DNA of 64,000 nt from a virus (IMGVR_UViG_3300013005_000034:1-64000), one strand, 5' to 3'; shown: positions 2,587 through 23,313, counted from the stretch's first letter. Made by a program: numbers and translations. The notes: generated by a model from the letters alone, not told the origin.

Positions 2587-2599
2587 CAAACTGACTTAT

Positions 2600-3118: not shown

Positions 3119-3245
3119 AACGGCACTCGGCTAAACTCTCGTTGCCGACTTAAATATGAGAGATAAACTTAATTAAAAGCACAAAATTATGAGTACAAAA
3201 AATATTTCAAACGAAGAAAAAGACAATGGAGTTTTAGCCGATGTT
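3119..3245. repeat. attC-like linker 2, contains the start of the next ORF
   Basis: tcggctaaactc...gagttttagccga t gtt; ATG at 3189 in the loop. Confidence 0.8.
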
Positions 3246-3419
3246 ATGCAACGTGATTTATATGCAGAATTACGTTCATCAGGTAGTATGACTTCTGACC
3301 AATGCTGTGAAGTTTTAGATTGGACAGAAAAATTACCAATACAAATTATAGGGTTAAATAATGTTAAGGTTTCAATAGTGCAAGGTGTTATTAGGGTAGA
3401 ACCTAATCATGTTGCATAA
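3189..3419 (+). CDS. Cassette 3 cargo, hypothetical protein
   Basis: Starts in the linker; stop TAA overlaps the terminal AAC. Confidence 0.7.
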   Translation: MSTKNISNEEKDNGVLADVMQRDLYAELRSSGSMTSDQCCEVLDWTEKLPIQIIGLNNVKVSIVQGVIRVEPNHVA

Positions 3420-3464
3420 CGTTTTGCGTATAAAAAATCGTTTTAATGTTTTTTATACGCTGTT
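3418..3464. repeat. Short attC-like linker, near-identical to 17502-17548 and 23985-24031
   Basis: gcgtataaaaaa tcgttttaatg ttttttatacgc. Confidence 0.9.
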
Positions 3465-3570
3465 ATAACCAGTAGGGATTATTTAGTAGTAACTTTAATC
3501 GGAGAACTGAACAAAAAATTAAAACAAAAAAAAGCGAATAATTTTTTAATAACTAATAAATAAAAACAAA

Positions 3571-4026
3571 ATGATGACAATTTCTAAATTAGCTTCTGAA
3601 ATCAGGGGCGAAAACAACAAAAAAGAATCTGAAAATGATTACAAAAGATTAACTGATACTTTGAAGCAATTCAATGAAGATTTCAAAGAGGTTGTTTGTG
3701 ATTTAATTAAATGTGAGGTTAAATACGAACCTTGTTTTTGGTATAAAAGTGATAACGATGGGCAATATCATATTTTCCCACACGAAACCAAATTAGATTT
3801 AAAAATGAATGGTGGAAGTGGTGGAACTTGTATTGCTAATTCTATTCTTTTCACATTTAATCACAATGGAGAAACAAGAAAGAAAAGATTATTTTATACG
3901 GAAAATAAAGGTTGGTATTATATTGCTCGTAGAGGAAATCACATGAATGATGATTATTTAATAAAAGATTACAGAAAAGACTTCATATTATACCTTGATA
4001 GTTATTTTGAAGGTGAATATAAATAA
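3571..4026 (+). CDS. Cassette 4 cargo, hypothetical protein
   Basis: 151-aa ORF filling the cassette. Confidence 0.75.
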   Translation: MMTISKLASEIRGENNKKESENDYKRLTDTLKQFNEDFKEVVCDLIKCEVKYEPCFWYKSDNDGQYHIFPHETKLDLKMNGGSGGTCIANSILFTFNHNGETRKKRLFYTENKGWYYIARRGNHMNDDYLIKDYRKDFILYLDSYFEGEYK

Positions 4027-4105
4027 ATCATTTGTGGGTGGGCTTTTTTGTTTTAATTTTTTGAACAATAAAGTTAATTCGGAGCAGTCCACCCCTATTG
4101 GTTAT

Positions 4106-4195
4106 AACGTTTTGCAGCTAACAGAAGTGGCTGCTTGTAAGAACTTCTGAATTAAAAACAAATGCTTGTAGCAGCCATTTTTGTTAGGTGCTGTT
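4106..4195. repeat. attC-like linker 4
   Basis: gcagctaacagaagtggctgct...agcagccatttttgttaggtgc. Confidence 0.8.
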
Positions 4196-4220
4196 ATAGG
4201 CTGTAAAAAATTAAAAAGCG

Positions 4221-4421
4221 ATGGAATTACAACTGATTAACTTAGGTAGAAACAACATTAACAAAACTATTGTTGTGAAAAACGAAAAAGCAATGTGGCG
4301 TGAACTTTCTAAACATTTAATGAGCAAAGGAATTGAACTTTCACCAACTGACGAACCGAATAAATACGATGTGTATGTAGGAATGTTTAGAAATGTTGGA
4401 CAGGTGATTATTAAAGAGTAA
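4221..4421 (+). CDS. Cassette 5 cargo, hypothetical protein
   Basis: 66-aa ORF between the arms. Confidence 0.7.
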   Translation: MELQLINLGRNNINKTIVVKNEKAMWRELSKHLMSKGIELSPTDEPNKYDVYVGMFRNVGQVIIKE

Positions 4422-4453
4422 CTGTGCGTAGGCTTTAATTTTTTATTGCCTAT

Positions 4454-4534
4454 AACGGTAGGAATTTGCGTCTGTTGATTTTTTACCAACAAGACAATAG
4501 ACGCTTAAAAAATCAATAGCGCAAATTTATTGTT
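4454..4534. repeat. attC-like linker 5
   Basis: aatttgcg(t)ctgttgatttt...aaaatcaatagcgcaaatt with one bulged T. Confidence 0.8.
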
Positions 4535-4557
4535 GGGCGCAGTTAAATTAAATCGGA

Positions 4558-4740
4558 ATGAGCAAACAAACAACTTGGAGCGAAAGAGCAAAATGCTATG
4601 ACGCAAAACACACAGAAAATGGAACAATATTATATTATGTGTGCCTTATTACAGGGAAGAAAACAGAATTGAAACACCCTGATAAACTTGCTTTATCGGC
4701 ATATATTGGGCATATAGGGGCTTTAGTGCAGTCCTATTAA
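4558..4740 (+). CDS. Cassette 6 cargo, hypothetical protein
   Basis: 60-aa ORF between the arms. Confidence 0.65.
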   Translation: MSKQTTWSERAKCYDAKHTENGTILYYVCLITGKKTELKHPDKLALSAYIGHIGALVQSY

Positions 4741-4748
4741 TTGCGCCC

Positions 4749-4871
4749 AACGGCTACGGCTATACGCAGTTGCGAACTTAAAAATTAAACAAAATGATAA
4801 AAAAAGAAGATTACTTAAAAGCAAAAGAAACCGTTGAAAAATACGAAGAGCAATTGCGTATAGCCGATGTT
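4749..4871. repeat. attC-like linker 6, contains the start of the next ORF
   Basis: cggctatacgcagttgc...gcaattgcgtatagccg; ATG 4794 in the loop. Confidence 0.8.
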
Positions 4872-5024
4872 ATGCGTAGTGCTAATTGCTACAATGAACT
4901 GAAAGCATTTTTGCAAGAGAAAAAGAAAAGTCCAAGATTATGCGCTTGGGATAGTGTTCACCATCAAGAGATATGGGATAAAATGCTTGAACTCGAACAG
5001 AAGTATTCAGAGCATTACGCATAA
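4794..5024 (+). CDS. Cassette 7 cargo, hypothetical protein
   Basis: Starts in the linker, ends at TAA(C). Confidence 0.7.
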   Translation: MIKKEDYLKAKETVEKYEEQLRIADVMRSANCYNELKAFLQEKKKSPRLCAWDSVHHQEIWDKMLELEQKYSEHYA

Positions 5025-5107
5025 CGGTTGAGGCTATGAGCAGTTGCCTTATAAATACTGCTCAATTAACCACAAATGTTGATAGGCAATTGCTTATAGC
5101 CTTTGTT
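5023..5107. repeat. attC-like linker 7
   Basis: aggctatgagcagttgcct...aggcaattgcttatagcct. Confidence 0.8.
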
Positions 5108-5124
5108 AGCACCAGTTTTTTATT

Positions 5125-5379
5125 ATGAATTACGAAGAAATAAAACAAAAAGTAACGGACAGAGAAATCAACTGTGAACAAGCATTTGAAAGCCTTGCAG
5201 AAATCGGTTATTGTCCAAATTTATTAAACGATGATAACGGTCATTGGGCTGTTAAATTTGATGGCTTTCAAAATGTGCCAATGGGTGATGAACCTGATGA
5301 TATTTCAACTACTTGTTTTATTGAAGCAAAGGATTGGAAAGATAGTATTTACGAAGCACTTGTTTGGGCGTTGTCCTAA
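5125..5379 (+). CDS. Cassette 8 cargo, hypothetical protein
   Basis: 84-aa ORF between the arms. Confidence 0.7.
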   Translation: MNYEEIKQKVTDREINCEQAFESLAEIGYCPNLLNDDNGHWAVKFDGFQNVPMGDEPDDISTTCFIEAKDWKDSIYEALVWALS

Positions 5380-5389
5380 AATTGGTGCT

Positions 5390-5484
5390 AACGTTTTGTG
5401 GCTTTGTGTCTGTTATTTTGGCTTGCAGACACTCGCCTTTAAAGATAAATTTTATAGCCAAAATAATAGCACAAAACCACTGTT
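5390..5484. repeat. attC-like linker 8
   Basis: gtggctttgtg(t)ctgttattttggct...agccaaaataatagcacaaaaccac. Confidence 0.8.
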
Positions 5485-5512
5485 AGTGGCTGGTGCGGTA
5501 AATTAAGAACAA

Positions 5513-5725
5513 ATGTTTAATAACAATCAAATTCAAAAAGTAGAAATAGACCAAGAAAAGAAAAAACTTTATGTCTATTATGTTCAGGACAACTCACATT
5601 TAATGAGTAACCCACCTCCGCCACCAAGTTATTATAGAGAAGTTTTTTCTTTTGATAATTTGGAATTTATTGAAAAGGAATATGCAAAAGTAGAACGAGG
5701 ATTTGAAAAGGTAACGTGGTCGTAG
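5513..5725 (+). CDS. Cassette 9 cargo, hypothetical protein
   Basis: 70-aa ORF between the arms. Confidence 0.7.
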   Translation: MFNNNQIQKVEIDQEKKKLYVYYVQDNSHLMSNPPPPPSYYREVFSFDNLEFIEKEYAKVERGFEKVTWS

Positions 5726-5736
5726 CACTTGCCACT

Positions 5737-5853
5737 AACGGTTCTCGGCTTGGCGAAGTTGCCGAACACAAAACTTCATTAGAATTACAAATTTTTAAAT
5801 TTAGATAAAATGTCAAACGAAGAACTAAACGGCAATTTTGCCAAACCGATGTT
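5737..5853. repeat. attC-like linker 9, contains the start of the methyltransferase
   Basis: tcggcttggcgaagttgccg...cggcaattttgccaaaccga; ATG 5810. Confidence 0.8.
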
Positions 5854-6466
5854 ACCTGCCGTTGTGGGTTCTCAAAGGAAATACCAAATTATTTACGCTG
5901 ACCCTGCTTGGTCACACTATAACGATATGACCGTTACTGTGCAACAGAATAAAGCAAAGGATTTTATTAGTAGAAACCCATATCCAGTAATGTCAAGTTC
6001 AGATATAAAAGCGTTGCCAATAAAAGATATAGCCGATGAAAATTGCATTTTGTTTATATGGACTACGGACTATCATTTATCAAGATGCTGTGAAGTGATA
6101 AAGGCTTGGGGATTTGAATATAAAACAGTTGGTTTTGTGTGGCAAAAGTTGAATAAACAAAATAAGCCTGTATGCTTTATGGGAAACTACACTTTGAAAA
6201 GTGGCGTAGAAATATGTTTATTAGCCACAAAGGGTAAGGGGGCTGCCAAATTAGTTAAGAAACGAAATGTAAGGTCGTTAGTTCAAAGCCAACGTGAAGA
6301 ACATAGTAAGAAACCCGATGAAGTAAGAAATAGAATAGTAGAACTTTGTGGCGATATACCAAGAGTAGAATTATTTGCAAGGGAAAATCACGATGGGTGG
6401 GATGCTTGGGGTAATGAAGTGGAAGAAAGTATCAACTTGGAAACGTCTGCTAACAATGGCAGGTAA
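5810..6466 (+). CDS. MT-A70 family adenine methyltransferase (cassette 10 cargo)
   Basis: IIYADPAW, LFIWT, AWGFEYKT, HSKKP, ELFAR, GWDAWGNE motifs. Confidence 0.9.
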   Translation: MSNEELNGNFAKPMLPAVVGSQRKYQIIYADPAWSHYNDMTVTVQQNKAKDFISRNPYPVMSSSDIKALPIKDIADENCILFIWTTDYHLSRCCEVIKAWGFEYKTVGFVWQKLNKQNKPVCFMGNYTLKSGVEICLLATKGKGAAKLVKKRNVRSLVQSQREEHSKKPDEVRNRIVELCGDIPRVELFARENHDGWDAWGNEVEESINLETSANNGR

Positions 6467-6514
6467 CGGTTTGCGTATAAGAGCCGTTTTTTCAATGGCT
6501 TCTTATACGCTGTT
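6465..6514. repeat. attC-like linker 10
   Basis: gcgtataagagcc...ggcttcttatacgc. Confidence 0.8.
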
Positions 6515-6570
6515 ATGCTCTCGTTTTGCGTGGGTGGGCTTGATAAAATATTAACTTAAAAAATATACAA

Positions 6571-6807
6571 ATGGAAATTGAAACAGTATCAGATTTAGCA
6601 AATGTAATAGCCGATTGGATTGGTGTTTATGGAGCTTGTAAAGACGAAGGTAAAAGTGATGGGTGCGAATTTTCTGAAAAGAAAGTTGCTTGTTGCAGAG
6701 TAGGATTTACAATGCACTTAGAGGAACGAATTAGAGAGGCTGTTGAAAATGATAAGAAAATTGAGGAAATGAATTTGCGTGAGCTGGCAAAGCAAAATGG
6801 AGCATAA
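6571..6807 (+). CDS. Cassette 11 cargo, hypothetical protein
   Basis: Ends at TAA(C) of the right arm. Confidence 0.7.
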   Translation: MEIETVSDLANVIADWIGVYGACKDEGKSDGCEFSEKKVACCRVGFTMHLEERIREAVENDKKIEEMNLRELAKQNGA

Positions 6808-6808
6808 C

Positions 6809-6894
6809 TCCAATCTTTGCGCTATATTAATGGAAATAAAAAGTTATTAACAATAGTATAATTAGATTATTTTATTACCTATATTTACCACAAT
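6809..6894 (+). promoter_or_regulatory. Conserved array-terminal element, copy 1 (attI-like site plus probable promoter)
   Basis: tttgcgctatattaatggaaataaaaagttattaacaatagtataatt shared with 18412-18496 and 25098-25183. Confidence 0.7.
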
Positions 6895-6909
6895 TAAAAA
6901 CCGAACAAA

Positions 6910-7344
6910 ATGCAAAATAACAAAACAGAATTTAAGATTAGGAATTTTTTTATAGATGAAAAAAATTATCTTCAAATTAAGAGTAATGATAAATTAATAT
7001 TCTTAACTCTATACTTAAATGGAGAAAAAAGAGGTAGGAATATAGGAACTGTTACTAAATCTACCCGAACAATATTTATGAAACGCAAAGTAGATAAACA
7101 TTTATTTAGGAAATTGAACGCTTGGGGGTTCAACGATTATGTTTTAAGAAATCAAAGTACATTCGATTTTGTGAGTTTAAGCGATGATAAAGGAAACCAT
7201 TGGAGTAAGATACCTGTAAGTATGATTTTAGAGGGAGCTACATACTTAAATTTTAAAAGTCAGGGATTTGAATTACAAAGATTTGTTTCTTTGGAAGATT
7301 TAGAGAAATATAAAGTAAAAAAAGAAGATAATACGAGATTTTAA
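6910..7344 (+). CDS. Hypothetical phage protein
   Basis: 144-aa ORF downstream of the terminal element. Confidence 0.75.
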   Translation: MQNNKTEFKIRNFFIDEKNYLQIKSNDKLIFLTLYLNGEKRGRNIGTVTKSTRTIFMKRKVDKHLFRKLNAWGFNDYVLRNQSTFDFVSLSDDKGNHWSKIPVSMILEGATYLNFKSQGFELQRFVSLEDLEKYKVKKEDNTRF

Positions 7345-7345
7345 G

Positions 7346-7837
7346 ATGAATACTGGAAACTATATGATAGATGGGGATGATGGTAGCCATTGCTTTTCTC
7401 CCTATCACAATTCAAGTAAATGTGAACTTTGCAAAGAACTTGAAGAAGAATTGGAAAAAGAACAAGAATTAGACGAAGATTTGGAAAATGATAATAACGA
7501 TGTTTTTGAATCTGAACACAAATTGCCTTTTTTAGTTGCTGAATATCCATTGAATTTAGATACTAAACACAAATGGATATGCTTTAAAGTTGGAACTTGC
7601 GAAGGACTTTGGAGATGCACCTATACGAGTTATGAGATTTTAGCACTTAAAAACAAAGAAAAAGGTAACGGACACCTCAACGATGTTTTTCAATGGTTTG
7701 AAATGAGTAGCAAAAGAGATAATAAAACTCTAAAGGTAAAAGAAGTTTGGAACGAGCGATTTCAAAACCACTTGCAAAAAAGAGGATTTAAAAGATGTTC
7801 GGCTTTTGATTTTGAAAAAACTTTTAAAAATAATTAA
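7346..7837 (+). CDS. Hypothetical protein, possible GNAT-like C-terminal domain
   Basis: KEKGNGHL...NERFQNHLQKRGF resembles GNAT motifs A/B; weak. Confidence 0.45.
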   Translation: MNTGNYMIDGDDGSHCFSPYHNSSKCELCKELEEELEKEQELDEDLENDNNDVFESEHKLPFLVAEYPLNLDTKHKWICFKVGTCEGLWRCTYTSYEILALKNKEKGNGHLNDVFQWFEMSSKRDNKTLKVKEVWNERFQNHLQKRGFKRCSAFDFEKTFKNN

Positions 7838-8140
7838 ATGGGAATGTTTGATGATTTGGTAATTGACAAAGTTCACTTACCTGACGAGTTGAAAAATTAT
7901 GAAAATGGTTGGCAGACAAAATCGCTTGATTGCTATATGAATTTTATTAAAATTGATGAAAATGGTAGTTTGTTTGAAACTATATGTCATTATCACAATG
8001 AAAAAGAAAGTCCAAGAAGAAAATATCATATCGGAGAAGTAAGATTTTACCAAAATATAAATGATGTTTGGTATGTCTTTGTCGCCTTTTTTGATGATGG
8101 AAAGATGTTTAGATTAATACAAGTAGAGCCAAAAAAATAA
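7838..8140 (+). CDS. Hypothetical phage protein (MGMFD...QTKSLD type)
   Basis: N-terminal motif familiar from small phage proteins. Confidence 0.7.
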   Translation: MGMFDDLVIDKVHLPDELKNYENGWQTKSLDCYMNFIKIDENGSLFETICHYHNEKESPRRKYHIGEVRFYQNINDVWYVFVAFFDDGKMFRLIQVEPKK

Positions 8141-8144
8141 TTTT

Positions 8145-8966
8145 ATGGAAAAAATATTTAAAATTCAACATATAAACGATTTACTTATCGTTGAATTTAG
8201 AAAATTAGTAGCCGAAGATTGCGAATTAGTATCTGATTCGGGATGTTTAATATCTATGCAAGAAAAATACATTAGCAGGAAAATAGTTTATTCGGTTAAA
8301 AAAGAATTAATCCAAGAAATAAAAGATTTTATCTCTTTAATTAAAGAAAAGAAAAATCATTATTTAGAATTTATGGCATTTGATGGTAAATTATTTATAA
8401 AAATAGAGGACAAATACCTTCGTGATGATTTTATCAAATACATAGATTTAATTGCTAATGAAATAGTATTGGATAAATCTAAATATTTAGATTTTAGAGG
8501 ATGTAAAACTGAACAAGATAAAGATAAGAAAATAGAAAAATTAAAAAAACAGGTTGATTTCTATGAATCTGAAAAATTGAGTTTTCTTGATGCTCATTTG
8601 GATTATCTAAATATGGAAATTGAAAAGTTAATTAAATATATCAATAAAGAAACTGAAAATGAACTTGTCATTTATATTACGAGTGGAGAATGTATAGAAA
8701 ACATAAGCGATGAAAAACTACTGGATTTATCAAGAGAATCAAAAAAACTATCTATTGAACTTGCAGTATTATCTGAACGAAGAAATGTAATAAATGAGGA
8801 ACTATCTAAGTTAAAAAGGCAAATTGTTATGGATAGGCTAATTTCAAATGATTTTACCATAACTGATGAATACGGAAATAAATATACTTTGCCTGAATCA
8901 ACAACTGAAAGAGTAAAAGAAAAATTGAACACGAGCTTTATTCCTAAAAAACATATTAAGATATAA
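8145..8966 (+). CDS. Hypothetical coiled-coil protein
   Basis: 273-aa charged ORF. Confidence 0.7.
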   Translation: MEKIFKIQHINDLLIVEFRKLVAEDCELVSDSGCLISMQEKYISRKIVYSVKKELIQEIKDFISLIKEKKNHYLEFMAFDGKLFIKIEDKYLRDDFIKYIDLIANEIVLDKSKYLDFRGCKTEQDKDKKIEKLKKQVDFYESEKLSFLDAHLDYLNMEIEKLIKYINKETENELVIYITSGECIENISDEKLLDLSRESKKLSIELAVLSERRNVINEELSKLKRQIVMDRLISNDFTITDEYGNKYTLPESTTERVKEKLNTSFIPKKHIKI

Positions 8967-9046
8967 TTTTAAAACTGATTATCAATACTATATAATAAAA
9001 AATTAAAATTTAACATTTACAATATTGACAATTAAAGTAAATTGAC

Positions 9047-9054
9047 TATATTTG
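9047..9054 (+). promoter_or_regulatory. Bacteroidota sigma-70 -7 element
   Basis: TATATTTG (TAnnTTTG) in an intergenic gap upstream of 9095. Confidence 0.55.
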
Positions 9055-9094
9055 TAAAAGTTTTAAATACCATTAAAAAATTCTACGGTCAAAA

Positions 9095-9592
9095 ATGAAT
9101 TTATTTATTTTATCAAACAGCAAAGAGGAATCGGCAATATTCCATACAGACAAACATATTGTTAAAATGCCGACTGAACTAAGTCAAATGTTATCGTTTG
9201 CTTATCATCATTCTAATTTATGGAAACATAATAATCCTGAATTTATTATGCAGTTTTCCAAAACACACGATTTGCACCCTTGCTCAAAATGGATGCGTGA
9301 AAGTTTATCTAACTGGATTTATAGTTGTGAGTTTGGATTAGAGCTATATAAAGAGTATCAGTTTAGATTCAATAAACCCGACAAACATCAAAGAGCAAAA
9401 AAAATATTTGAATTTTCACTAAACAACCCTCCTAATATTAAAGATATTGGCTTAACCCCTTTCGTTTGCGCTATGCCCGATGAAGTTAAGATTAGCGATT
9501 GTGCGGTATCTAATTACAGAAATTACTATAATAAATCGAAAACCCATTTGTTTAAGTGGACAGCAAGAAATAAACCTTATTGGATATATTAA
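9095..9592 (+). CDS. Pyrimidine-dimer DNA glycosylase/DenV-like protein
   Basis: MNLFIL...HTDKHIVKMPTELSQMLS...HPCSKW...YRNYY pattern. Confidence 0.75.
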   Translation: MNLFILSNSKEESAIFHTDKHIVKMPTELSQMLSFAYHHSNLWKHNNPEFIMQFSKTHDLHPCSKWMRESLSNWIYSCEFGLELYKEYQFRFNKPDKHQRAKKIFEFSLNNPPNIKDIGLTPFVCAMPDEVKISDCAVSNYRNYYNKSKTHLFKWTARNKPYWIY

Positions 9593-9602
9593 AAATAACA
9601 CT

Positions 9603-12100: not shown

Positions 12101-13129
12101 ATGAGAACATTAGCATCAATTCAAACAATAAAAGACATACAGCCAATAGAAAATGCCGATAGTATTGAGGTAGCAAGTATATTGGGTTGGAAAGTAGTAG
12201 TGTTGAAAAATCAATTCAAAGTTGGCGATAAGGTTGTTTATTGCGAAATAGATAGTTTATTGCCAGATATTGAAATATTTTCGTTCCTAAAACCAAGAGG
12301 TATGAGAATAAAAACTATTAGATTAAAAGGTCAAATAAGTCAGGGGATTTGCTTTCCGCTATCCACCGTTGAGTATTTTGGCTTACTTCCCGAAGATATG
12401 ATTGAAGGGCAAAATGTAACCGAAGCAATAGGTGTCGTTAAACACGAACCACCTATCCCAGCTTGTTTAAGTGGAGTTATGAAAGGAAAGTTCCCTTCGT
12501 TCATTCCTAAAACAGATGAAACAAGAGTGCAAGTATTACAAAAACTATTAGATAAATACGAGGGAACTAATTGCTACATTACCGAAAAAATTGATGGTAG
12601 TTCCGTTACCTATTACTTAAAAGATGGGGAATTTGGTGTTTGTAGTCGAAATATGGAATTGTTGGAATCCGAAGAAAATACATTTTGGAAAATGGCAAGA
12701 CAACTTAACATTGAAAACAAATTAAGGTCTTATGGAAAAAACATTGCTATACAGGGTGAATCGTTTGGCGAAAAAATACAAGACAACAAACTAAAAATAA
12801 AAGGGCATAGGGTATTATTTTTCAATGCTTTTGATATTGACAGGTTTGAGTATTTTAATTTTGAACAGTTTGCCTTACTAATGGCAAATTTAGGATTGGA
12901 TAATGTTCCTATTTTAGATTTCAACTATAAACTATCTAACAGTATTGATAGAATTATTGAAATGTCAAAAATAAAAAGCACCTTAAATAAAGATGTTTGG
13001 GCGGAGGGAATAGTAATTAGACCTCACAAAGAACGTATTGATTTGATGCTTTCAAATGAAAATTTCAACAATGGTCGTGTAAGTTTTAAAGCAATAAACC
13101 CTGAATTTTTAATTAAGTATGGAGAATAA
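12101..13129 (+). CDS. ATP-dependent RNA ligase, DRB0094 family
   Basis: N-terminal OB-like domain; TEKIDGSS (motif I), EGIVIR (IV), SFKAINPEFL (V). Confidence 0.9.
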   Translation: MRTLASIQTIKDIQPIENADSIEVASILGWKVVVLKNQFKVGDKVVYCEIDSLLPDIEIFSFLKPRGMRIKTIRLKGQISQGICFPLSTVEYFGLLPEDMIEGQNVTEAIGVVKHEPPIPACLSGVMKGKFPSFIPKTDETRVQVLQKLLDKYEGTNCYITEKIDGSSVTYYLKDGEFGVCSRNMELLESEENTFWKMARQLNIENKLRSYGKNIAIQGESFGEKIQDNKLKIKGHRVLFFNAFDIDRFEYFNFEQFALLMANLGLDNVPILDFNYKLSNSIDRIIEMSKIKSTLNKDVWAEGIVIRPHKERIDLMLSNENFNNGRVSFKAINPEFLIKYGE

Positions 13130-13619
13130 AAAAGTATTATTTCTTGACCACGATGGAGTAATTTGTTTGGCTACGGAGTGGGGTAGTCGTTTTAAAAACA
13201 AAGAGGGTTTTGATTCTTTATTTGATAGATTCAATCAAAAGGCAATAAATGTTTTGAATGAAATAATTGATGAAACCGATTGCGAGATAGTTATTAGTTC
13301 TGATTGGAGATTTCATTGCTCATTATCAGAAATGCAACAACTATATAAAATAAGAGGAATAGCAAAACCCCCTATGGCATATACTCGTTCTGATTTAGAT
13401 TGGAAACTATTTTTAGATGTTAATCCCAATAATGAATTAGAAAAAACAAGAGTTATGGAGATATTAAGTTATGTAAAGGAATATAATTTAGTTAATTGGG
13501 TAGCAGTAGATGATATGGATTTAAGTTTATTAGGGAATTTCGTTCATACTCCAAAATCTATGGAGGGAATTAAGCAGTCAGGTGTAAAAGAAAAAATAAT
13601 TAAATTTTTAAACAAATGA
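13119..13619 (+). CDS. HAD phosphatase (Swiss Army Knife RNA-repair type)
   Basis: FLDHDGV, ISSDWR, WVAVDD motifs; overlaps the RNA ligase stop. Confidence 0.85.
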   Translation: MENKKVLFLDHDGVICLATEWGSRFKNKEGFDSLFDRFNQKAINVLNEIIDETDCEIVISSDWRFHCSLSEMQQLYKIRGIAKPPMAYTRSDLDWKLFLDVNPNNELEKTRVMEILSYVKEYNLVNWVAVDDMDLSLLGNFVHTPKSMEGIKQSGVKEKIIKFLNK

Positions 13620-14769: not shown

Positions 14770-14770
14770 T

Positions 14771-14962: not shown

Positions 14963-14985
14963 TAACAACTAAAAACAAATAACAA

Positions 14986-16252: not shown

Positions 16253-16622
16253 TATGAAAACAAAAGATATATTATTGGCAATACAAGAATTTGAAAAAAT
16301 TGATGATTTAATATGTTTCAAAGAAGAAATAAAATCCTTTAATGGTAAATCTCTTAGTATTAATAACCAAGTTTATTTACTTGATAATATAGAGGAATTG
16401 AAAAGATTATATATTAATGAAGTTTGCGAAAAAAGGAAATATACAAAAGATAAGATTGAAAACATTAAAATTTTTGAATATAGAGTTGAAGATTTTATAG
16501 ATATTTTATATTCCCACCTCATCAGCGAAAATCTAATAAGCATAATTTCTAATGCTATTATAAGCGATATTACAACAAAAATTTTTAATGATATTATAAA
16601 AGAAAAAATAAACAATAAATAA
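16236..16622 (+). CDS. Hypothetical protein
   Basis: ORF track. Confidence 0.6.
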   Translation: MDLNFNMKTKDILLAIQEFEKIDDLICFKEEIKSFNGKSLSINNQVYLLDNIEELKRLYINEVCEKRKYTKDKIENIKIFEYRVEDFIDILYSHLISENLISIISNAIISDITTKIFNDIIKEKINNK

Positions 16623-17104
16623 AAAACAAATGGAACAATTAGAACAACAATTAAATGAAAAAATGCTACAAATAGCAAAAGATTACATTCAGAGAAGAAA
16701 TGATAAACCTTTTGAGCAATACGAGGAGGCAAATTATCTTAATGAAAAATACCTTTCAGTAAAAAATGAATTTGAAAAGGAAGGCGATTTTTATATAATC
16801 TTAAATGAGTGCATAAAAGTAGTTTTAGGAAAAACAAAAAAAAATACAATATGAAAATTAAAAAAAGAAAAATTAAAAACCCTTGTACTATTTGTGGTAA
16901 AGAAGTTCGTTGGGGAATTGATGGATGCCCTATTGTTGAAAAAGGCAAAGATTTTGAAACTTTATTGGGTGGAGTAAAAGGTATGAAGCATTATGAGTGC
17001 AAATAAAATTTTTAACATAACGGTTTGCAAATAGGCAATCGTTTTAATGTTGCTTATTTGCTGTTAGCACCAATACGGATTATTAACAACAAAAATTAAA
17101 TAAG

Positions 17105-17491
17105 ATGAAAGAATTTAAAAAAGAAAATTTAGAATTTTACTTACCTGATACATTTAAAGGATTAAGTAAAGATTATTTACTTGAATGTATCTTCAATGAT
17201 GAGATACAGAAAAAATGGAATCCTGATGTTGGAGATATTATTATTGGTTGCACTGGCAATATTTTTGTAATTGGGGTTAAAGAAACATTACATGAAAGTA
17301 TTGGTGGGGCGAGATATTATTTTGGTGGTGGCTCTTGTAATAGAGATGGTGGTAATATATTAGACAGCACATTTTGTTATACCGCAAATGAATCAGGTAA
17401 GTTTTATCACACATTAAAAGGTGAAATTCAAAATATTTATCATTCGTGTATTAGAGATTTTAGATACGTTCCTTATCCACACGAAAGGTAG
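17105..17491 (+). CDS. Cassette cargo, hypothetical protein
   Basis: Between arms gttagcaccaatac/gtattggtgctaac. Confidence 0.75.
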   Translation: MKEFKKENLEFYLPDTFKGLSKDYLLECIFNDEIQKKWNPDVGDIIIGCTGNIFVIGVKETLHESIGGARYYFGGGSCNRDGGNILDSTFCYTANESGKFYHTLKGEIQNIYHSCIRDFRYVPYPHER

Positions 17492-17575
17492 TATTGGTGC
17501 TAACGGTTTGCGTATAAAAAATCGTTTTAATGTTTTTTATACGCTGTTATATTTAGTTTTTTAAAACTTTTACAA

Positions 17576-17761
17576 ATGAAAAATATAGAAGAAGCAATAC
17601 AACTTAACTCAATAGATGAAATTGAGGAAGAAATAAGACAACGAAAGGAATTAAGAGCAACGATGGTTGGTCAATTATATCCAAGAATATTAACTGACGA
17701 GATTTATAAACTCAATGAAAAGTTGTGGAATATAAGACACTCAAAAGTTTTAAAAACTTGA
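17576..17761 (+). CDS. Cassette cargo, hypothetical protein
   Basis: 61-aa ORF between the arms. Confidence 0.65.
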   Translation: MKNIEEAIQLNSIDEIEEEIRQRKELRATMVGQLYPRILTDEIYKLNEKLWNIRHSKVLKT

Positions 17762-17809
17762 ATATAACCGCTAACAGATATATGTAGTTTTAACACAATA
17801 TTTAATAAT

Positions 17810-18058
17810 ATGGAAGAAAGTAAAAATTTAGAACAAAATTTGAATAAGAGTAATGAAAAATTACATATATCTAATGTTAGTTGTAGTTTATCATACCAAC
17901 CAAGTTATGTTGAAACTGTTTGTGAAGGTGTGTTTTTCAGAATTAAAGCACCATTGATATTCAGTGCTGATGTTTTAGCTTATGCTGGTATATTTTCTTT
18001 GTTAGACAAAAAACACACCTTTGAATATTATTGCTTAAAATATCTATCTGAAAGATAA
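17810..18058 (+). CDS. Cassette cargo with linker-encoded N-terminus
   Basis: Starts in the linker loop (MEESKN...LHISN-V-SCS). Confidence 0.65.
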   Translation: MEESKNLEQNLNKSNEKLHISNVSCSLSYQPSYVETVCEGVFFRIKAPLIFSADVLAYAGIFSLLDKKHTFEYYCLKYLSER

Positions 18059-18221
18059 ATTACAACTAACGGTTTGCGTGTATAAGAAGTGGCGGATTAG
18101 AACTCCAAAACTTTCAGCAAACGCAGAACTTAATTAGAATTACAAAACATTAAATAACCAAGAAACCCGCCATTTTTTATACACGCTGTTAGTGGCTGGG
18201 CTTTTCACAAATTGAAACAAA

Positions 18222-18398
18222 ATGAACAAAATATTGATATGTGTATTATTGCAAATCGTTCTTTTTATTCCATTTTATTTGATATGGAGAAATGATTGTA
18301 AAACGATAGGTAAAGACAACTTGGCTGTTAGCTTACAAGAACGATTTTTGTATTGGCTAATATTTTGTCCAATTTGGTTGGTTGGTGTGTTGGATTAG
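18222..18398 (+). CDS. Cassette cargo, 58-aa two-TM protein (not in ORF track)
   Basis: MNKILICVLLQIVLFIPFYLIW...FLYWLIFCPIWLVGVLD. Confidence 0.65.
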   Translation: MNKILICVLLQIVLFIPFYLIWRNDCKTIGKDNLAVSLQERFLYWLIFCPIWLVGVLD

Positions 18399-18411
18399 CC
18401 TTGCCACTAAC

Positions 18412-18496
18412 TTACTTCTTTACGCTACAATTAAGGAAATAAAAAGTTATTAACAATTGCATAATTAAATAAAATAATTACTAATTTTGACCACAA
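18412..18496 (+). promoter_or_regulatory. Conserved array-terminal element, copy 2
   Basis: cgctacaattaaggaaataaaaagttattaacaat...ctaattttgaccac, contains TAATTTTG. Confidence 0.75.
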
Positions 18497-18751
18497 ATGA
18501 TACTAAAGTTTAAATACGGTTTTGAATACAATGATTTTCTTTATGGATGGAACAATAAAGAATTATACAGATTGCCCTCTAAGAGTGGCAATAAATCTTA
18601 TGGATTAAAGAAATTAGATTCTATTGTAGTTGGTAACTCAATTGGATATAGAATTAAACAACAAAAGTTCTCTTTAAAACAACTTAAAGATAGAACGATA
18701 TTCATAGACAAAGAATATCAAGTTATTAGCGATACAGTTGATATACCTTAA
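18497..18751 (+). CDS. Hypothetical protein, weakly similar to 22256..22504
   Basis: ELYRLP...YRIKQQKFSLKQLK. Confidence 0.65.
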   Translation: MILKFKYGFEYNDFLYGWNNKELYRLPSKSGNKSYGLKKLDSIVVGNSIGYRIKQQKFSLKQLKDRTIFIDKEYQVISDTVDIP

Positions 18752-18802
18752 AAAATCACAAACAAACAATAAACCAAAACACAAATCAAAATCACAAACA
18801 AC

Positions 18803-19996
18803 ATGAAAAGACAAACCACCCTCGCAGAATTGGTAACGGAGTTGAAAGACCAAAATCTGCAAAAAAAAGATTTCGTAGTTCCTGCAAATCTTTTATCAAT
18901 GGAAAATGGAAAATTAGTAGTGAACAATTATAGTTCAAACGATTCTCTACAAAAGATACTTACAGAAGTAGGTATTCAATCAGAGGATTCCAATAAACTA
19001 ATTTTAAATTGCTTACCTGTAATTCATCAAAACTTATCAGATAAATGCGATATTCCTCGTAAATACTATAATCGTATTCAAGGACTAAAAGACCAAACAC
19101 TAATTGATACAAATGTTACTCATTGGTTAAAATCCATGAAAGGAAATGTTTTTTTAAGAACATTTATTGACAAAGATGAACAAAATGGATTCGCAAGAGC
19201 ATTACTTTCAGATAGATATAACGTAATTGATAACTTTGATGTTTTATTAGCTACACTTGAAGCAGTTAAGAATAGTGGATTAAACTTAAAGATTGAAGAT
19301 AACGGTTGTGATTTATCAGAATCTAAAATGTATGTAAGATTTGTTGCTCCTGAAATTGAAATTAACGCACCCGATTTATTAAAAAACTACAAAAATCCAA
19401 AAGGTAATAGTAATGTAGGTGATGGTATTATTACTGGATTTGTTGTTACTAATAGCGAAATAGGGCAAGGTTCATTTAATATCAGTCCAAGAGCTGTTAT
19501 ATTAAAGTGCCAAAACGGAATGGTATTTAAAAATGATGCCTTTGGTAAAATTCACTTAGGTTCAAAAATGGAACAATATTCTCAAATTGATTGGAGCGAA
19601 GAAACTAAAAGAAAAAATTACGAGTTAATTCAGGCGCAAGTAAAAGATGCGGTTAAGAAATTCACAAGCGAAGATTTTTTAGCACAAAAAATAAGTGAAT
19701 TAAACGAATATGCTGAAATTGAATTAAAACATCCTATTGAAACAGTTAAGAATGTTAGCAAATTATTAAACATTACCGAAGAAAAAGAAAAAAGTATTCT
19801 TGACTTCTTTATGAGAGGTGGCGATTTTAGTTACATGGGAGTAAGTCAGGCATTAACATTCTTTGCTCACGAAACAAAAGATGCAGACGAAGCTCACGAT
19901 TTAGAAACAACAGCTATTGAAATTTTACCAAAAATTAAAGAGTTGGATAAACCCTCTGTTTCAAAATCAGTTAAAACTCAAATGAGTTTAAATTAA
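18803..19996 (+). CDS. DUF932-family protein
   Basis: RALLSDRYNVIDN, NSEIGQGS, CQNGM motifs. Confidence 0.75.
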   Translation: MKRQTTLAELVTELKDQNLQKKDFVVPANLLSMENGKLVVNNYSSNDSLQKILTEVGIQSEDSNKLILNCLPVIHQNLSDKCDIPRKYYNRIQGLKDQTLIDTNVTHWLKSMKGNVFLRTFIDKDEQNGFARALLSDRYNVIDNFDVLLATLEAVKNSGLNLKIEDNGCDLSESKMYVRFVAPEIEINAPDLLKNYKNPKGNSNVGDGIITGFVVTNSEIGQGSFNISPRAVILKCQNGMVFKNDAFGKIHLGSKMEQYSQIDWSEETKRKNYELIQAQVKDAVKKFTSEDFLAQKISELNEYAEIELKHPIETVKNVSKLLNITEEKEKSILDFFMRGGDFSYMGVSQALTFFAHETKDADEAHDLETTAIEILPKIKELDKPSVSKSVKTQMSLN

Positions 19997-20010
19997 TAAT
20001 TTAGGAAATA

Positions 20011-20040
20011 AAAAAAGGGGGAAATCACGCCCCCTTTCTA
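20011..20040 (+). terminator. Probable intrinsic terminator
   Basis: aaaggggg-aaatcacg-cccccttt hairpin after the DUF932 gene. Confidence 0.55.
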
Positions 20041-20150
20041 AACCAAAGACACTATGTCAAAATAACACTAACGCCACAATAGGCGATACTAAATTATAAA
20101 TTAAATAAACAATTAATTAATTTTTATATTATACAACTAAATTGTAAAAA

Positions 20151-21038
20151 ATGAACATCAGTCAATCACTACTAAAATCCCTATTAGATTATCGTAATGG
20201 AAAAGAATGTGGATTAATATTTAAGGCAAAGTATATAGATGGAAGATACGATTTATTTCCTCCCTCCGATGCACAAAATGTAGGTGCATGGTTTGAATAT
20301 ATGGCTACTGGTAGCATACCTAAAAATGGTATAGTGCCAAAAGCAGAATATATGAAAAGAGGTAAAGATGAAAATGGCAACCCTGAACTTACTGCCGATT
20401 ATCGCTTAATGAGAGAACATATAGATAATTTCAAAAAGAATATGGAGAGTTACTCATTAGATATTATTACAGCAGGAGAAGATATTAAAGTTTTATATCC
20501 TAATTCTTTAGAAGAATATGGAGAAGAAGTTTATTTAACAGGAACTCTTGATGTAAGAGCAAGAGCAAATAAAGATATTTTTGCTAAATACCAAGATACT
20601 ATCGTTAAGGTAGCTTCAAAAGATGAAGAAGTTATTATTGATATTAAAACGACTGGATTGTTAGACGATAAATGGTCGGAAATGGGCTGGGAGATTAATA
20701 ATCTATCAAATAAAATTAAACTTGTTACTCAACCTGTTCACTATAAATTTATTGAGTATTTAAAAACAGACAAAGATGTACCTTTTATATTTATGTTGTT
20801 CAATTCTAAAAACTCAAAAGATGCAAGAATTATTGATTTTAAAGTTGATAGTTCATCTTTTGAAGAACATAAAGCGTTTATTGAATCGGGAGTTGAAAAT
20901 ATGTTGCATTTGAGAAAATATGGTTTCAAAGCGTTGCCATCACTTGAAAAATGTTCAAAATGTCCTTTGAATACTGATTGTAAGTTTAAAGCAGAAATTT
21001 CGCCAATAACTATATTTTATTTTGCTCATCAGGTTTAA
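20151..21038 (+). CDS. PD-(D/E)xK (RecB/Cas4-like) exonuclease
   Basis: GTLDV...IIDIKTT and C-terminal CSKCPLNTDC. Confidence 0.75.
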   Translation: MNISQSLLKSLLDYRNGKECGLIFKAKYIDGRYDLFPPSDAQNVGAWFEYMATGSIPKNGIVPKAEYMKRGKDENGNPELTADYRLMREHIDNFKKNMESYSLDIITAGEDIKVLYPNSLEEYGEEVYLTGTLDVRARANKDIFAKYQDTIVKVASKDEEVIIDIKTTGLLDDKWSEMGWEINNLSNKIKLVTQPVHYKFIEYLKTDKDVPFIFMLFNSKNSKDARIIDFKVDSSSFEEHKAFIESGVENMLHLRKYGFKALPSLEKCSKCPLNTDCKFKAEISPITIFYFAHQV

Positions 21039-21173
21039 TATATTATGTTTGTATCGCACAATTCAACTAAAATGAAATTACAAAAAAAATATTTAAAAAA
21101 AACCTTTAAGCAAGTAGGAATCCTCTATTTTTAGTTGATTGTGCAACCTACTTGCGAGAAGGGATTTTTAATC

Positions 21174-21986
21174 ATGGAAACATCATTAATTATTGAAATT
21201 TCATCTTTGCCTTGTATAGATGATAAAAGAGGGCGTTATAGAACAATAGAATTATATCCAAAAATTAGTGGAATTTATAAAATAACATCTCCTAATGGCT
21301 CTATTTATATTGGTTTATCAAATGATATTTATTATAGGATTTATAGTTGTTATAAGAAATTAAGATGTAAGGCTCAACATAAAATATATAATTCTTTAAT
21401 TAAATATGGTATTGATAATCATAAATTTGAAATTATTCATATTGTTGAAAATTTTGAAGAATATGAGAAAATTAAAATTTTAAGAAAATTAGAAATAGCT
21501 TATATACAAAAATATAATTCATTTTATGGAAATAATAATTTTGGAATGAATTTAACAAAAGGAGGCGAAATAATTGAATTAACAGATGAAACTAAAAAAA
21601 TAATGAATGATAAGAAAAAAGGTAGGATTGTTTCCCAAGAAACAAGAGAAAAGTTAAGGAAAATAAATTTAGGTAAAAAATTATCACAAGAACATAAAGA
21701 TAAAATTAGTATATCTCATAAAGGAAAAATTGTTTCAGAATTAACAAAAAAAAGATTAAGTGAATCTCACAAAGGAGAAAAACATAGTTTTGAACGAATA
21801 CAAAAAAAAATTGGAAGTAAACAAAATCCTGAAACAATAAAAAAAAGAATTGATAAGATTAGCGGTATTAATCATTGGACAAAAAAATATGGCGGTCATT
21901 CAGAGCAAACAAAGATAAAAATAAGTATATCACTCAAAGAAAGGCATAAAAAAATGTCTAATAAGAATGAAAAAAACACTAATTAA
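21174..21986 (+). CDS. GIY-YIG homing endonuclease with NUMOD3 repeats
   Basis: SGIYKIT...IYIGLS; repeated SQETREKL/SEQTKIKIS. Confidence 0.85.
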   Translation: METSLIIEISSLPCIDDKRGRYRTIELYPKISGIYKITSPNGSIYIGLSNDIYYRIYSCYKKLRCKAQHKIYNSLIKYGIDNHKFEIIHIVENFEEYEKIKILRKLEIAYIQKYNSFYGNNNFGMNLTKGGEIIELTDETKKIMNDKKKGRIVSQETREKLRKINLGKKLSQEHKDKISISHKGKIVSELTKKRLSESHKGEKHSFERIQKKIGSKQNPETIKKRIDKISGINHWTKKYGGHSEQTKIKISISLKERHKKMSNKNEKNTN

Positions 21987-22278
21987 AAGAAAAAAATTAA
22001 GTAAGAGTTTAAGAATAAAAATATTTGAGAGGGATAATTATGAATGTCAGTTGTGCTATGACAATTTAATAGATAAAAAAGATTTAAGAGTAATAGACCA
22101 TAAAATACCTCTTTCAAAAGGAGGCAGTAACTCAATATCAAATCTTTGGCTACTTTGTAATGATTGTGATAAAAGAAAGAAAAATAAATTGTTTCCTGAA
22201 TTGATGAAACAATACATAAAGGGTAAGTTAAATTATCTTTCTAATTTAAGATTTAATGGAAATCGTTATAATAAGTGA
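21967..22278 (+). CDS. HNH endonuclease
   Basis: RDNYECQLC...DHKIPLSKGG...NLWLLCNDC. Confidence 0.85.
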   Translation: MKKTLIKRKKLSKSLRIKIFERDNYECQLCYDNLIDKKDLRVIDHKIPLSKGGSNSISNLWLLCNDCDKRKKNKLFPELMKQYIKGKLNYLSNLRFNGNRYNK

Positions 22279-22504
22279 ATATGAAAATTTACCTTACATA
22301 GTTAAAAGCGAGAATGGAGAAATATATCAGTTAAGTTATTATGATACTAAAAAAAGAATTAAAAAATACAAAATATTAATACCTAAAGAGCATAACGGAA
22401 GTATGTATTATAGAATTAATAGTGAGAGATATTCAGATTATAGATTAAAAACAATTGAGATTAAAGTTTATAAAAGAATTAACCTAAATAAAATAAAAAA
22501 ATGA
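22256..22504 (+). CDS. Hypothetical protein
   Basis: ORF track. Confidence 0.6.
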   Translation: MEIVIISEYENLPYIVKSENGEIYQLSYYDTKKRIKKYKILIPKEHNGSMYYRINSERYSDYRLKTIEIKVYKRINLNKIKK

Positions 22505-22791
22505 AACCATTAAAAATCAAAGGAGTTAAATTAAAAAAAGGAGAAGAATTATTACATTATTATCCTTTTTGTTATTGCATAGCAAAATCTACTGAAAGTA
22601 GTGCTTTATTTGTAATACCTCCACAAAATAAAGGAACTGTTGCAGATAATGGTTATTTAAGCGTTTGTTTTGATTATAAATTATGTAAAGATGTAAAAGT
22701 AGGAGATTGGTGCGAAGTAGGTTATATAAGTGATTATAGTAAAGGAGAAAATAAAGTGCTTAAAATATTAAAATCTAAAAAAAATAAATAA
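22501..22791 (+). CDS. Hypothetical protein
   Basis: ORF track. Confidence 0.6.
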   Translation: MKPLKIKGVKLKKGEELLHYYPFCYCIAKSTESSALFVIPPQNKGTVADNGYLSVCFDYKLCKDVKVGDWCEVGYISDYSKGENKVLKILKSKKNK

Positions 22792-23023
22792 TATGAATAA
22801 AAAAATTAATATTATAGGAATCATTATTTTTTTATTTTCTCTTTCATATTTAACAATATACACTATGATTATTGATTTATATTATGGTATATCTATGGGA
22901 TTAATTTCAATTTTATTTATAATAATTATATTAAAAAGTAAAAAAAAGAAAAATGAATAAGTATGGAAAATAAAAATACTTTCTATGGGATTGAAATATT
23001 TAAAAACTAAAAAAAATAAAAAT

Positions 23024-23061
23024 AAATAAAAACAAACAAAATGAAAACAACAAAAACAAAA
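23024..23061 (+). repeat. 38-bp direct repeat, left of array 3 (second copy 25205-25242)
   Basis: aaataaaaacaaacaaaatgaaaacaacaaaaacaaaa at both sites. Confidence 0.7.
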
Positions 23062-23085
23062 ACAAAAATGAAAACAACAAAAAAA

Positions 23086-23313
23086 ATGGAACACAAAAAT
23101 TTGAATACAAAAGAAACCGCCAATAGCGATTTAGGTGCTGTTAGCGGTAGTTTGAGGGAACAATCTCTTGAATGGTTTTTCGCAAAAAGTGAAATTGAGA
23201 AACACGATTTAAAAGACAAACACTTTCCAAACACACCAATACAGCATAGTAGGCAATGGGGATTTCATTTCACTTTTGGTCAAATTGAGGAAATGTATGT
23301 TAAAGAACGGTAA
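23086..23313 (+). CDS. Cassette cargo with linker-derived N-terminus
   Basis: MEHKNLNTKETANSDLGA-V-SGS crosses the GTT at 23140. Confidence 0.7.
   Translation: MEHKNLNTKETANSDLGAVSGSLREQSLEWFFAKSEIEKHDLKDKHFPNTPIQHSRQWGFHFTFGQIEEMYVKER

Follow-up and report, generated by a model that had tools for sequence, protein, structure and literature searches.

Integrons are commonly regarded as a bacterial means of storing genes without promoters, each followed by a recombination site, attC. Here, we describe attC-type hairpins that stand ahead of genes in a lake-water Flavobacterium-type phage, the source of the viral DNA stretch IMGVR_UViG_3300013005_000034:1-64000. This 64,000-nucleotide stretch, hereafter the window, covers the first 64 kb of a virus record that has 73,651 bases and a CheckV completeness of 62%. 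The linkers between its small genes are attC-type hairpins, and we consider it very probable that they belong to an integron-like system of Bacteroidota and build three phage arrays in which a hairpin and the gene downstream of it move as one unit, with exchange in the AAC box. Integron cassettes and phage attC clusters are known; the inverted, hairpin-first cassettes are new and, judging from sequence comparisons, widespread in Bacteroidota phages.

Clusters of attC sites without an integrase (CALINs) have been reported from virulent phages (Qi et al. 2023, PMC9892861), with 17 CALINs and integron components in 21 phages in the sections of that article available to us. The same sections describe methyltransferase cassettes with predicted attCs in 'divergent directions' in the Flavobacteriaceae phage P12002L of Polaribacter, propose restriction escape as a role and report recombination of phage attCs with IntI1; the main text, as far as available, makes no mention of a start codon or of 'upstream of', and has 'orientation' in the methods sense only. 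IntegronFinder 2.0 reported, in the part of the publication at hand, one complete integron in Bacteroidetes, and the corresponding part of the earlier IntegronFinder paper judged recombinases near attC that lack the IntI C-terminal domain not to be IntI. For Baltic Flavobacterium phages, the available text of PMC7077304 describes host efficiency that varies together with methyltransferase sets, and does not contain the words 'hairpin', 'stem-loop' or 'cassette'. A full-text literature search returned no account of phage cassettes in inverted order, nor of genes that start within an attC site.

All sites of the window lie on the + strand and comprise 15 full hairpins (47-127 nt), one very short site and one half site consisting of a right arm only. 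They form three clusters of 10, 4 and 1-3 sites, respectively: array A (2600-6808), array B (17019-18411) and array C (23115-25097). The sites, the cassette open reading frames (ORFs) that appear to start within them and the array ends are given below, with the z score of the fold against shuffled sequences.

2600-2664, + strand: L1, first hairpin of array A (AAC to GTT), from sequence; z -4.92
3119-3245, + strand: L2, with a loop ATG at 3189; z -0.59 (weak); flank complementarity to L3 of 7 nt, 13 with one mismatch
3189-3419, + strand: cassette ORF, 76 aa, putative start in the L2 loop, TAA stop in the L3 TAAC box
3418-3464, + strand: L3, near-identical to L12 and LC2; z -3.51
4106-4195, + strand: L4 hairpin; z -4.26
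4454-4534, + strand: L5 hairpin; z -4.09
4749-4871, + strand: L6, with a loop ATG at 4794; z -3.66
4794-5024, + strand: cassette ORF, 76 aa, putative start in the L6 loop, TAA stop in the L7 TAAC box
5023-5107, + strand: L7 hairpin; z -3.09
5390-5484, + strand: L8 hairpin; z -5.11
5737-5853, + strand: L9, a class II hairpin with a loop ATG at 5810; z -2.58
5810-6466, + strand: MT-A70 DNA methyltransferase cassette ORF, 218 aa, putative start in the L9 loop, TAA stop in the L10 TAAC box
6465-6514, + strand: L10 hairpin; z -6.55
6806-6905, + strand: right end of array A, bare ...GAGCATAAC and then a conserved, putative docking/promoter module; 23-nt motif at 6832
17019-17065, + strand: L11, first hairpin of array B; z -2.59
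17502-17548, + strand: L12 hairpin; z -4.36
17766-17878, + strand: L13, with a loop ATG at 17810; z -2.20
17810-18058, + strand: cassette ORF, 82 aa, putative start in the L13 loop
18068-18190, + strand: L14 hairpin; z -3.49
18409-18496, + strand: right end of array B, bare ...GCCACTAAC and then the putative docking/promoter module; 23-nt motif at 18435
23115-23142, + strand: half site with a right arm and no left arm, leftmost in array C, crossed by ORF 23086-23313
23326-23350, + strand: very short hairpin-like site after ORF 23086, without flank complement to the next site
23985-24031, + strand: LC2, near-identical to L3; z -2.82
25095-25185, + strand: right end of array C, bare ...GGTTATAAC and then the putative docking/promoter module; 23-nt motif at 25121

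The hairpins start with ..YTAAC(G) and finish with (T)GTTR.., and the 15 full window sites have the inverted core boxes RYYYAAC and GTTRRRY closing an imperfect hairpin, as in attC. DNA folds and the consensus of 64 related hairpins agree on the layout: the foot has 5 bp (TAACG/TGTTA), the stem is long and the loop variable, and a 4-nt bulge (KTTY) is confined to the 5' side. This is the arm of the exchanged AAC box, and the other arm has no bulge. The textbook attC, as we take it to be, carries an unpaired central spacer and extrahelical bases on the arm opposite the exchanged box, and our comparison is with this presumed picture. The fold z score is -2.2 or lower in 14 of the 15 hairpins, with 0-7 of 200 shuffled sequences folding as well, and the 64-hairpin alignment contains compensatory changes at 12 of 23 predicted pairs (for example UA in 40 and GC in 20 sequences at one pair). 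Sites were checked by hand and by a strict scan, replacing a loose hairpin scan that gave 69 and 67 matches versus 41-57 in shuffled sequences. Searches of the window against Rfam at gathering thresholds and with a tRNA scan both gave zero matches.

Between neighbouring sites, the flanks are complementary. In 15 of 17 adjacent pairs, 5-11 bases to the right of the GTT are the exact reverse complement of the bases to the left of the next AAC, and the match often reaches 12-14 bases when one mismatch is allowed. Among non-adjacent pairs, five or more complementary bases were found in 7 of 290, and the two flanks of one hairpin match over 0-3 bases. Since adjacent flanks, and not those of the same hairpin, are complementary, it is each gene rather than each hairpin that is bracketed by its own inverted repeat. 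This signature is a feature of integron cassettes; alone, it does not reveal which of its two neighbouring genes, left or right, a hairpin belongs to.

Isolated Flavobacterium phages (lillamy, snork and mymlan) carry arrays of the same kind of hairpin, and cassette moves among the lillamy and snork genomes bear on this question. The genomes of lillamy9-1 and lillamy9-3, both 38,268 bp long and 100% identical around the event, differ in the place of a 439-bp segment, which occupies an internal array position in one and the terminal ...CTTGCTTATAAC|TACAAT right end in the other. The segment consists of a hairpin directly after ..ATAAC and one ORF, ends in ..GAGTTATAAC, and leaves both empty sites intact. 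Between lillamy9-3 and lillamy9-7 we found a 470-bp hairpin-plus-gene indel, located between ...GGTTTAAC| and the next hairpin, together with one cassette replacement between boundaries of the same kind. At the terminal ..CTTGCTTATAAC|TACAAT, snork6-1 and snork6-2 differ by a single cassette of hairpin and gene, which one of them has and the other lacks, and snork6-1 differs from lillamy9-3 by a block of two cassettes with a hairpin at its start and ...GCGGCTAAC| at its end. Each of the four clean events, whether indel or translocation, involves a block with the hairpin first and the gene and AAC last. The first-pass annotation had proposed that the mobile unit is a linker plus the cassette downstream, with the crossover at the coding-strand AAC, and had suggested following linkers across genomes; in these phages, the linker does travel with the downstream gene, the lillamy and snork indel junctions lie at AAC|, and the array right ends and the integrase position described below fit the same unit.

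Those junctions share only 5-12 nt and always end in AAC, which is difficult to reconcile with PeSL-like shuffling, in which the hairpins would be terminator- or promoter-type motifs and genes would be swapped by homologous recombination without a site-specific recombinase. This explanation has some support: a PD-(D/E)XK-like exonuclease and nucleases are among the products of the phage genes, the near-identical L3, L12 and LC2 and shells of 12-16 nt could act as homology patches, hairpins occur joined to different bodies, and the three docking modules resemble repeated promoter units if the -7 box consensus is as we presume. However, every gene sits in its own inverted repeat, which homologous recombination does not yield, and the same hairpin family occurs in arrays beside bacterial tyrosine recombinase genes. 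We regard PeSL-like shuffling as unlikely, even with PeSL cassettes being described for T4-type phages in the available part of PMC2839356.

The ends of the arrays also bear on the unit. A full hairpin opens arrays A and B. The right ends of arrays A, B and C are alike and consist of a gene, a bare RYYYAAC and then the 23-nt motif GGAAATAAAAAGTTATTAACAAT. This motif lies 24-26 nt past the terminal AAC, ahead of a TAnnTTTG-like box, which we take to match a -7 box promoter consensus, and of the next phage gene. It has three copies in the 73,651 bases (at 6832, 18435 and 25121), with no further copy at up to five substitutions, and no exact match in the viral contig collection outside the window's own record. 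By its appearance, the module combines a dedicated docking site with a promoter. We also considered the terminal module as a cassette in itself and sought a partner of its GTTATTAAC, and no ATTGTTAATAAC was found. The array ends fit exchange at the AAC box and are the mirror image of what exchange at a coding-strand GTT predicts. Contigs of four lake metagenome runs were compared with the window; they break at the hairpins, and the parts that they leave uncovered are uninformative. The terminal AAC of array B has its C at 18411, and one contig, of run X4, runs on directly from this base into the beginning of a further hairpin; it is weak evidence because it may stem from another genome that shares this cassette.

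We next compared the order of hairpin and gene in phages and bacteria, using a class II pattern built from L9 and a mymlan hairpin, which describes a strongly conserved element of about 126 nt. The pattern occurs at 56 loci of bacterial genomes, nearly all from Bacteroidota with a few from Ignavibacteriota and others, and in at least 119 viral contigs; the viral counts given here are from the 80 loci returned and the bacterial counts from the 56 loci. Many bacterial loci are co-oriented arrays with the same bulge asymmetry, such as the eight hairpins within 8 kb of Kaistella jeonii. The longer ORF is on the hairpin strand in 110 of 115 scorable inter-hairpin intervals in viruses versus 22 of 67 in bacteria (Fisher p 2e-20). 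The bacterial intervals with the ORF on the opposite strand, 45 of 67, show the canonical order, gene and then hairpin, and the hairpin precedes the ORF in 14 of 15 intervals of the window and the Mumin/Lillamy loci. The first-pass annotation had described the phage arrangement as opposite to that of canonical integron cassettes. This stands for the gene order, even against bacterial members of the same family, and does not extend to the geometry of recombination: what is inverted in the phages is the coding strand, and on the strand of the bacterial genes the crossover is the usual G|TT of the R' box.

The position of the integrase agrees with this view. Read in phage orientation, the five bacterial loci in which a tyrosine recombinase homologue is seen all have it on the right-hand side of their hairpins, as does the 1 of the 80 viral loci with such a gene. 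In Kaistella jeonii, the last cassette ends in ...TTTCTGCTAAC| and is followed by a short inverted-repeat region and then by the integrase gene. Because the integrase is on this side, the AAC crossover of the phages corresponds to an ordinary G|TT exchange of the integrase-distal box, and the right end of the array corresponds to attI.

These data make it very unlikely that the canonical order also holds in the phage, with each hairpin belonging to the upstream gene, exchange at GTT on the coding strand and loop ATGs that are accidental. Such an order would account for the ORFs that end 0-40 nt before the next AAC box, 4 of 17 stopping at the TAA of that box in a way that is common among canonical cassettes, and for the extra unpaired bases on the coding-strand 5' arm, presumably the arm on which the top strand of a canonical attC carries its extrahelical bases. 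It conflicts, however, with the four clean events that start with a hairpin and end with a gene and AAC, with arrays that end in a gene and a bare AAC and not in a hairpin, with an integrase on the side expected for AAC exchange, and with the 57 of 84 loop ATGs that are in frame with long ORFs. Peel-and-paste transposition of the IS200/IS605 type, with hairpins as element ends and an HUH (Y1) transposase inserting 3' of TAAC, is barely credible: the short conserved word ..TAAC always immediately precedes the insertion, whose left end has a hairpin close inside it, and the phage has an IS605-type TnpB ORF (36040-37209), yet no TnpA or Y1 transposase is present among 133 ORFs, each unit has one hairpin instead of two subterminal ones, and the bacterial arrays are linked to tyrosine recombinases.

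The hairpin-first unit raises the possibility that a linker supplies the start codon of the downstream gene, as the first-pass annotation had claimed for the window in general. The claim holds for part of the sites: 4 of the 15 full hairpins and one half-hairpin can be read in this way, and the other 11 cassettes start after the GTT. The ORFs at 3189-3419, 4794-5024, 5810-6466 and 17810-18058 begin in the loops of L2, L6, L9 and L13, respectively, with the ATG 44-73 nt past the left AAC box, and read through the right arm and the GTT. The six stereotyped peptides that had been listed as a result (VLADVMQ, RIADVMR, AKPMLPA, HISNVSC, DLGAVSG and QAGVIKS) are all present and use two frames, five with GTT as a codon and one, in ORF 5810, in the frame CCG ATG TTA; the third frame meets TAG where the right box is GTTAG. 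ORF 23086-23313 crosses a half-linker as proposed, a right-arm-only site with the sequence TTAGGTGCT GTTAGCGGT that resembles the right arms of L1 and L4 and has its complement before the AAC at 23326 (7 nt, 12 with one mismatch). A second half-linker, proposed for ORF 2065, was rejected, as this ORF begins 423 nt before the supposed site and the site is supported by a 7-nt GTTATAA/TTATAAC match that we estimate to be fairly frequent by chance in AT-rich sequence.

The sequences ahead of the loop ATGs have an A fraction of 0.53-0.73, compared with 0.63 +/- 0.16 for the other starts of the phage and 0.13-0.33 for ATGs after the GTT; for ORF 3189 the values are 0.60 for the loop ATG and 0.13 for the ATG after the GTT. 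Three close homologues of ORF 3189 (87-92% identity) keep the frame, and being just three close relatives they provide no test of the start codon. Across the class II loci, the loop ATG is open for at least 50 codons past the GTT in 57 of 84 viral versus 8 of 56 bacterial hairpins (Fisher p 2e-10), and the viral fraction exceeds the expected one third (binomial p 1e-10). The 54 complete viral ORFs that start in a loop fall into 38 body clusters, use the three frames 40, 0 and 14 times, and begin with stereotyped N-termini such as ...NGNFAKPML..., ...ALNKTDVS... and ...QSCQTDVSGS.... Thirteen of the 47 loop-start ORFs that were scanned encode DNA methyltransferases, seven of the N6/N4 type and six of the C5 type (seven look-alike rows were left out). 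The methyltransferase Pfam domain begins at residue 18-43 in 11 of these 13, which leaves little room for a start downstream of the hairpin. In the window, ORF 5810 matches Pfam PF05063 (1.3e-30) over residues 25-203 and phrog_359 over residues 21-209. The A-rich leaders, the conserved frame and the domain starts thus make the loop ATG the likely start; where the KPML frame is used, translation could alternatively begin at an ATG overlapping the GTT.

Additional occurrences of the L9-type module were seen outside the phage. In the array of a bacterial metagenome-assembled genome (L018), a hairpin is 88.9% identical to L9 over 126 nt, including the ATG and the first codons. Two cassettes with phage-type, inverted ORFs, one of them with the L9-type loop start, lie at the integrase-proximal end of this otherwise canonical array (5361-6579 of the reverse complement), and could mark traffic between host arrays and phages. 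In metagenome run X7, contig depth is 95-277 in the bins of 5707-6907, with up to ~1000 at single places, and ~3-15 in most other bins; the similarity begins at 5806 and ends at 5859. A far more abundant organism of that lake therefore carries the module of ATG and right arm, without a left arm and with another gene.

Several observations weigh against the reading that we favour. L2 folds no better than its shuffled versions (z -0.59). In ORF 3189, the residues encoded by the loop are more variable than the others (8 of the first 14 versus ~8 of 62 in the rest), which would fit a leader that is weakly constrained or not translated. A contig of run X5 has a different right arm before the same cassette at 5104; mymlan6-1 contains one hairpin whose right flank mismatches the end of its cassette; and the L9-type hairpin, including the loop ATG and the first codons, occurs joined to different bodies, with an ORF of 153 aa in L018. 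Given the mymlan mismatch and the occurrence of one hairpin on different bodies, exchange to the right of the hairpin, through the other strand or through homology, must also occur. Two relatives (L007 and L008) lack hairpins throughout the 21 kb that match the window phage, and no mobility event was seen in the window phage itself. As for the enzyme, the array-linked recombinase scores 201 bits against the 265-bit cut-off of the integron integrase model TIGR02249, and no recombinase was found in the 62%-complete record (no TIGR02249 candidate, none by Pfam among 133 ORFs and none by tblastn) or in the complete genome of lillamy9-1.

The array-linked recombinase matches TIGR02249 at positions 2-179 and 239-315 only, so that the IntI-specific segment is absent, and passes NF040815 (Xer/integron integrase) with 220.9 against 220 bits. 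The array-linked Bacteroidota recombinases that we inspected (L067 1147-2190 on the - strand, L065, L068, L069, L043 and L094) have an N-terminal extension of ~75 aa and no IntI-specific segment, and those of L065 and L068 are interrupted by stops or frameshifts. A blastp comparison of lillamy9-1 with the window phage returned a helix-turn-helix match only and hence no common recombinase candidate. As a recombinase was found in neither phage record and the two share no other protein, an enzyme provided in trans by the host is the economical inference, most likely an Xer-like tyrosine recombinase without the IntI-specific domain, which would also act on the window phage.

We propose that a cassette on the coding strand of the phage would run from the C of the AAC box through a 4-nt bulge, stem, loop and stem to GTTRRRY, the ORF and RYYYAA. 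The point of exchange would be the AAC box with which each hairpin begins on the left, and newcomers would dock at the bare ...AAC| site at the right end of the array. The phage ORF is encoded on the strand that corresponds to the 'bottom' strand of bacterial arrays, and in the mRNA the hairpin would become a 5' leader. In the long hairpins (~120 nt), the loop would provide the ATG, preceded by a leader rich in A and followed by the initial 13-25 codons; translation would go on through the right arm and GTT in one of two open frames, and the terminal ...TAA of a cassette would often serve as stop codon. In one reading, the order is inverted because phage transcription crosses the array towards the docking site, whereas the bacterial promoter reads from attI into the array. 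We are evenly divided on a broader proposal, according to which Bacteroidota and their virulent phages share a non-canonical system with attC hairpins of ~120 nt, a bulge beside the exchanged box and an Xer-like integrase without the IntI domain. The phage attC would double as 5' leader, start codon and portable N-terminal tag on dozens of unrelated proteins, docking would occur at phage-borne attI-like promoter modules, and the host enzyme would shuffle cassettes during infection, with methyltransferases and ORFan early genes being swapped on demand.

The cassettes of the window carry mostly ORFan cargo, with no PHROG for 15 of the 17 cassette ORFs; the ORFs stop 0-40 nt ahead of the next AAC box. 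As had been noted before, the linkers at 3418 and 23985 are near-identical and precede the same cassette shell, with the termini GTTATAACCAGTAGGG... and ...CCTATTGGTTATAAC at both. Such shells, in which termini of 12-16 nt and portions of the untranslated ends are alike, surround different ORFs (3462-3480/4090-4108 with 24029-24047/25080-25097, and 5482-5496/5726-5739 with 18188-18202/18398-18411), so that cargo seems to be swapped inside a constant frame. In several cassettes of the window and of phage mymlan6-1, the motif (A)TTCGGAG is repeated near both ends, at a distance of 20-60 nt from them (window ~3510, 4080, 24070 and 25070; L001 ~3150, 3975 and 4760).

The record has a GC content of 25-37% and, by Pfam and PHROG annotation, a tailed-phage set of structural, lysis and early genes; genes of the window are on the + strand until ~33.9 kb and on the - strand thereafter. 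At the DNA level, only 140 nt of it (3382-3523), made up of L3 and its right flank, resemble anything in the phage collection, and 37 of the 40 matches are Flavobacterium phage records. L007 and L008 are ~76% identical in DNA over the query gene (80% and 79% in protein), a divergence too large for a precise definition of empty sites. Metagenome joints from 2490 to 8380, 4205 to 6464 and 16298 to 17017 were discarded, as the shorter side mostly has 20-21 letters and nothing site-like is found at 8380. Elsewhere in the window, an RNA ligase (PF09414 with a PHA02142 OB-fold domain) lies beside a HAD_SAK_2 protein (12101-13616), a likely RNA-repair pair. The TnpB/OrfB ORF of the IS605 type (36040-37209, - strand, 390 aa) contains PF01385, PF07282 and PF12323, with no TnpA seen among the 133 ORFs, and is flanked by GC-rich hairpin-like ends near 35986-36127 and 37254-37385.

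Our results suggest that virulent phages use in reverse, and at scale, the same kind of site as bacterial integrons, with at least 119 viral contigs for one subclass. An attC that acts as a translation-initiation module would account for the stereotyped N-terminal peptides on unrelated phage proteins. The arrays would offer a concrete route by which phages exchange anti-restriction methyltransferases, which bears on host range, and they point to a large Bacteroidota cassette family that current tools may miss. The lillamy9-1/lillamy9-3 pair is a ready experimental system.

The phage cassettes resemble integron cassettes in their RYYYAAC/GTTRRRY boxes, AAC/GTT exchange, complementary outer box halves and co-oriented arrays, in the docking of newcomers at one end by an integrase-proximal site, and in their mostly ORFan cargo. 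They differ in that the phage ORF is on the other strand, so that attC precedes the gene and can hold its start codon, and in the 4-nt bulge directly beside the exchanged box, in place of the spacer and extrahelical bases of what we presume to be the textbook site. An integrase with the IntI domain, which defines a complete integron, is present neither in the phage record nor next to the bacterial arrays; with two or more attC sites in a row and no integrase in 73.6 kb, the phage arrays are CALINs.

In integrons of the Treponema type with an 'inverted integrase', as described in the accessible part of 10.1101/030866, the integrase is inverted and the order of gene and then attC is kept, whereas the phage has its cassette ORFs turned round relative to attC; the integrase gene is co-directed with the cassette genes in Kaistella jeonii, Marivirga tractuosa and locus L043. 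By function, the nearest phage analogue appears to be the PeSL cassette, which in the available parts of PMC2839356 and PMC4122927 likewise has short stem-loops that bracket small ORFans and undergoes shuffling in hyperplastic early regions of virulent phages. PeSLs are described there as promoter-terminator composites thought to use homologous recombination, in contrast to the exact AAC boundaries, the repeat flanks belonging to each gene and the bacterial integron-like family found here; only the three terminal modules look promoter-like, and the hairpins between genes have exact AAC junctions. Our scan of P12002L found three hairpins, all in phage-type orientation on the coding strand. Compared with the phage CALINs in the sections of PMC9892861 at hand, the arrays described here comprise at least 119 IMG/VR contigs for one subclass, have the inverted order as the rule and include cassette moves seen in nature.

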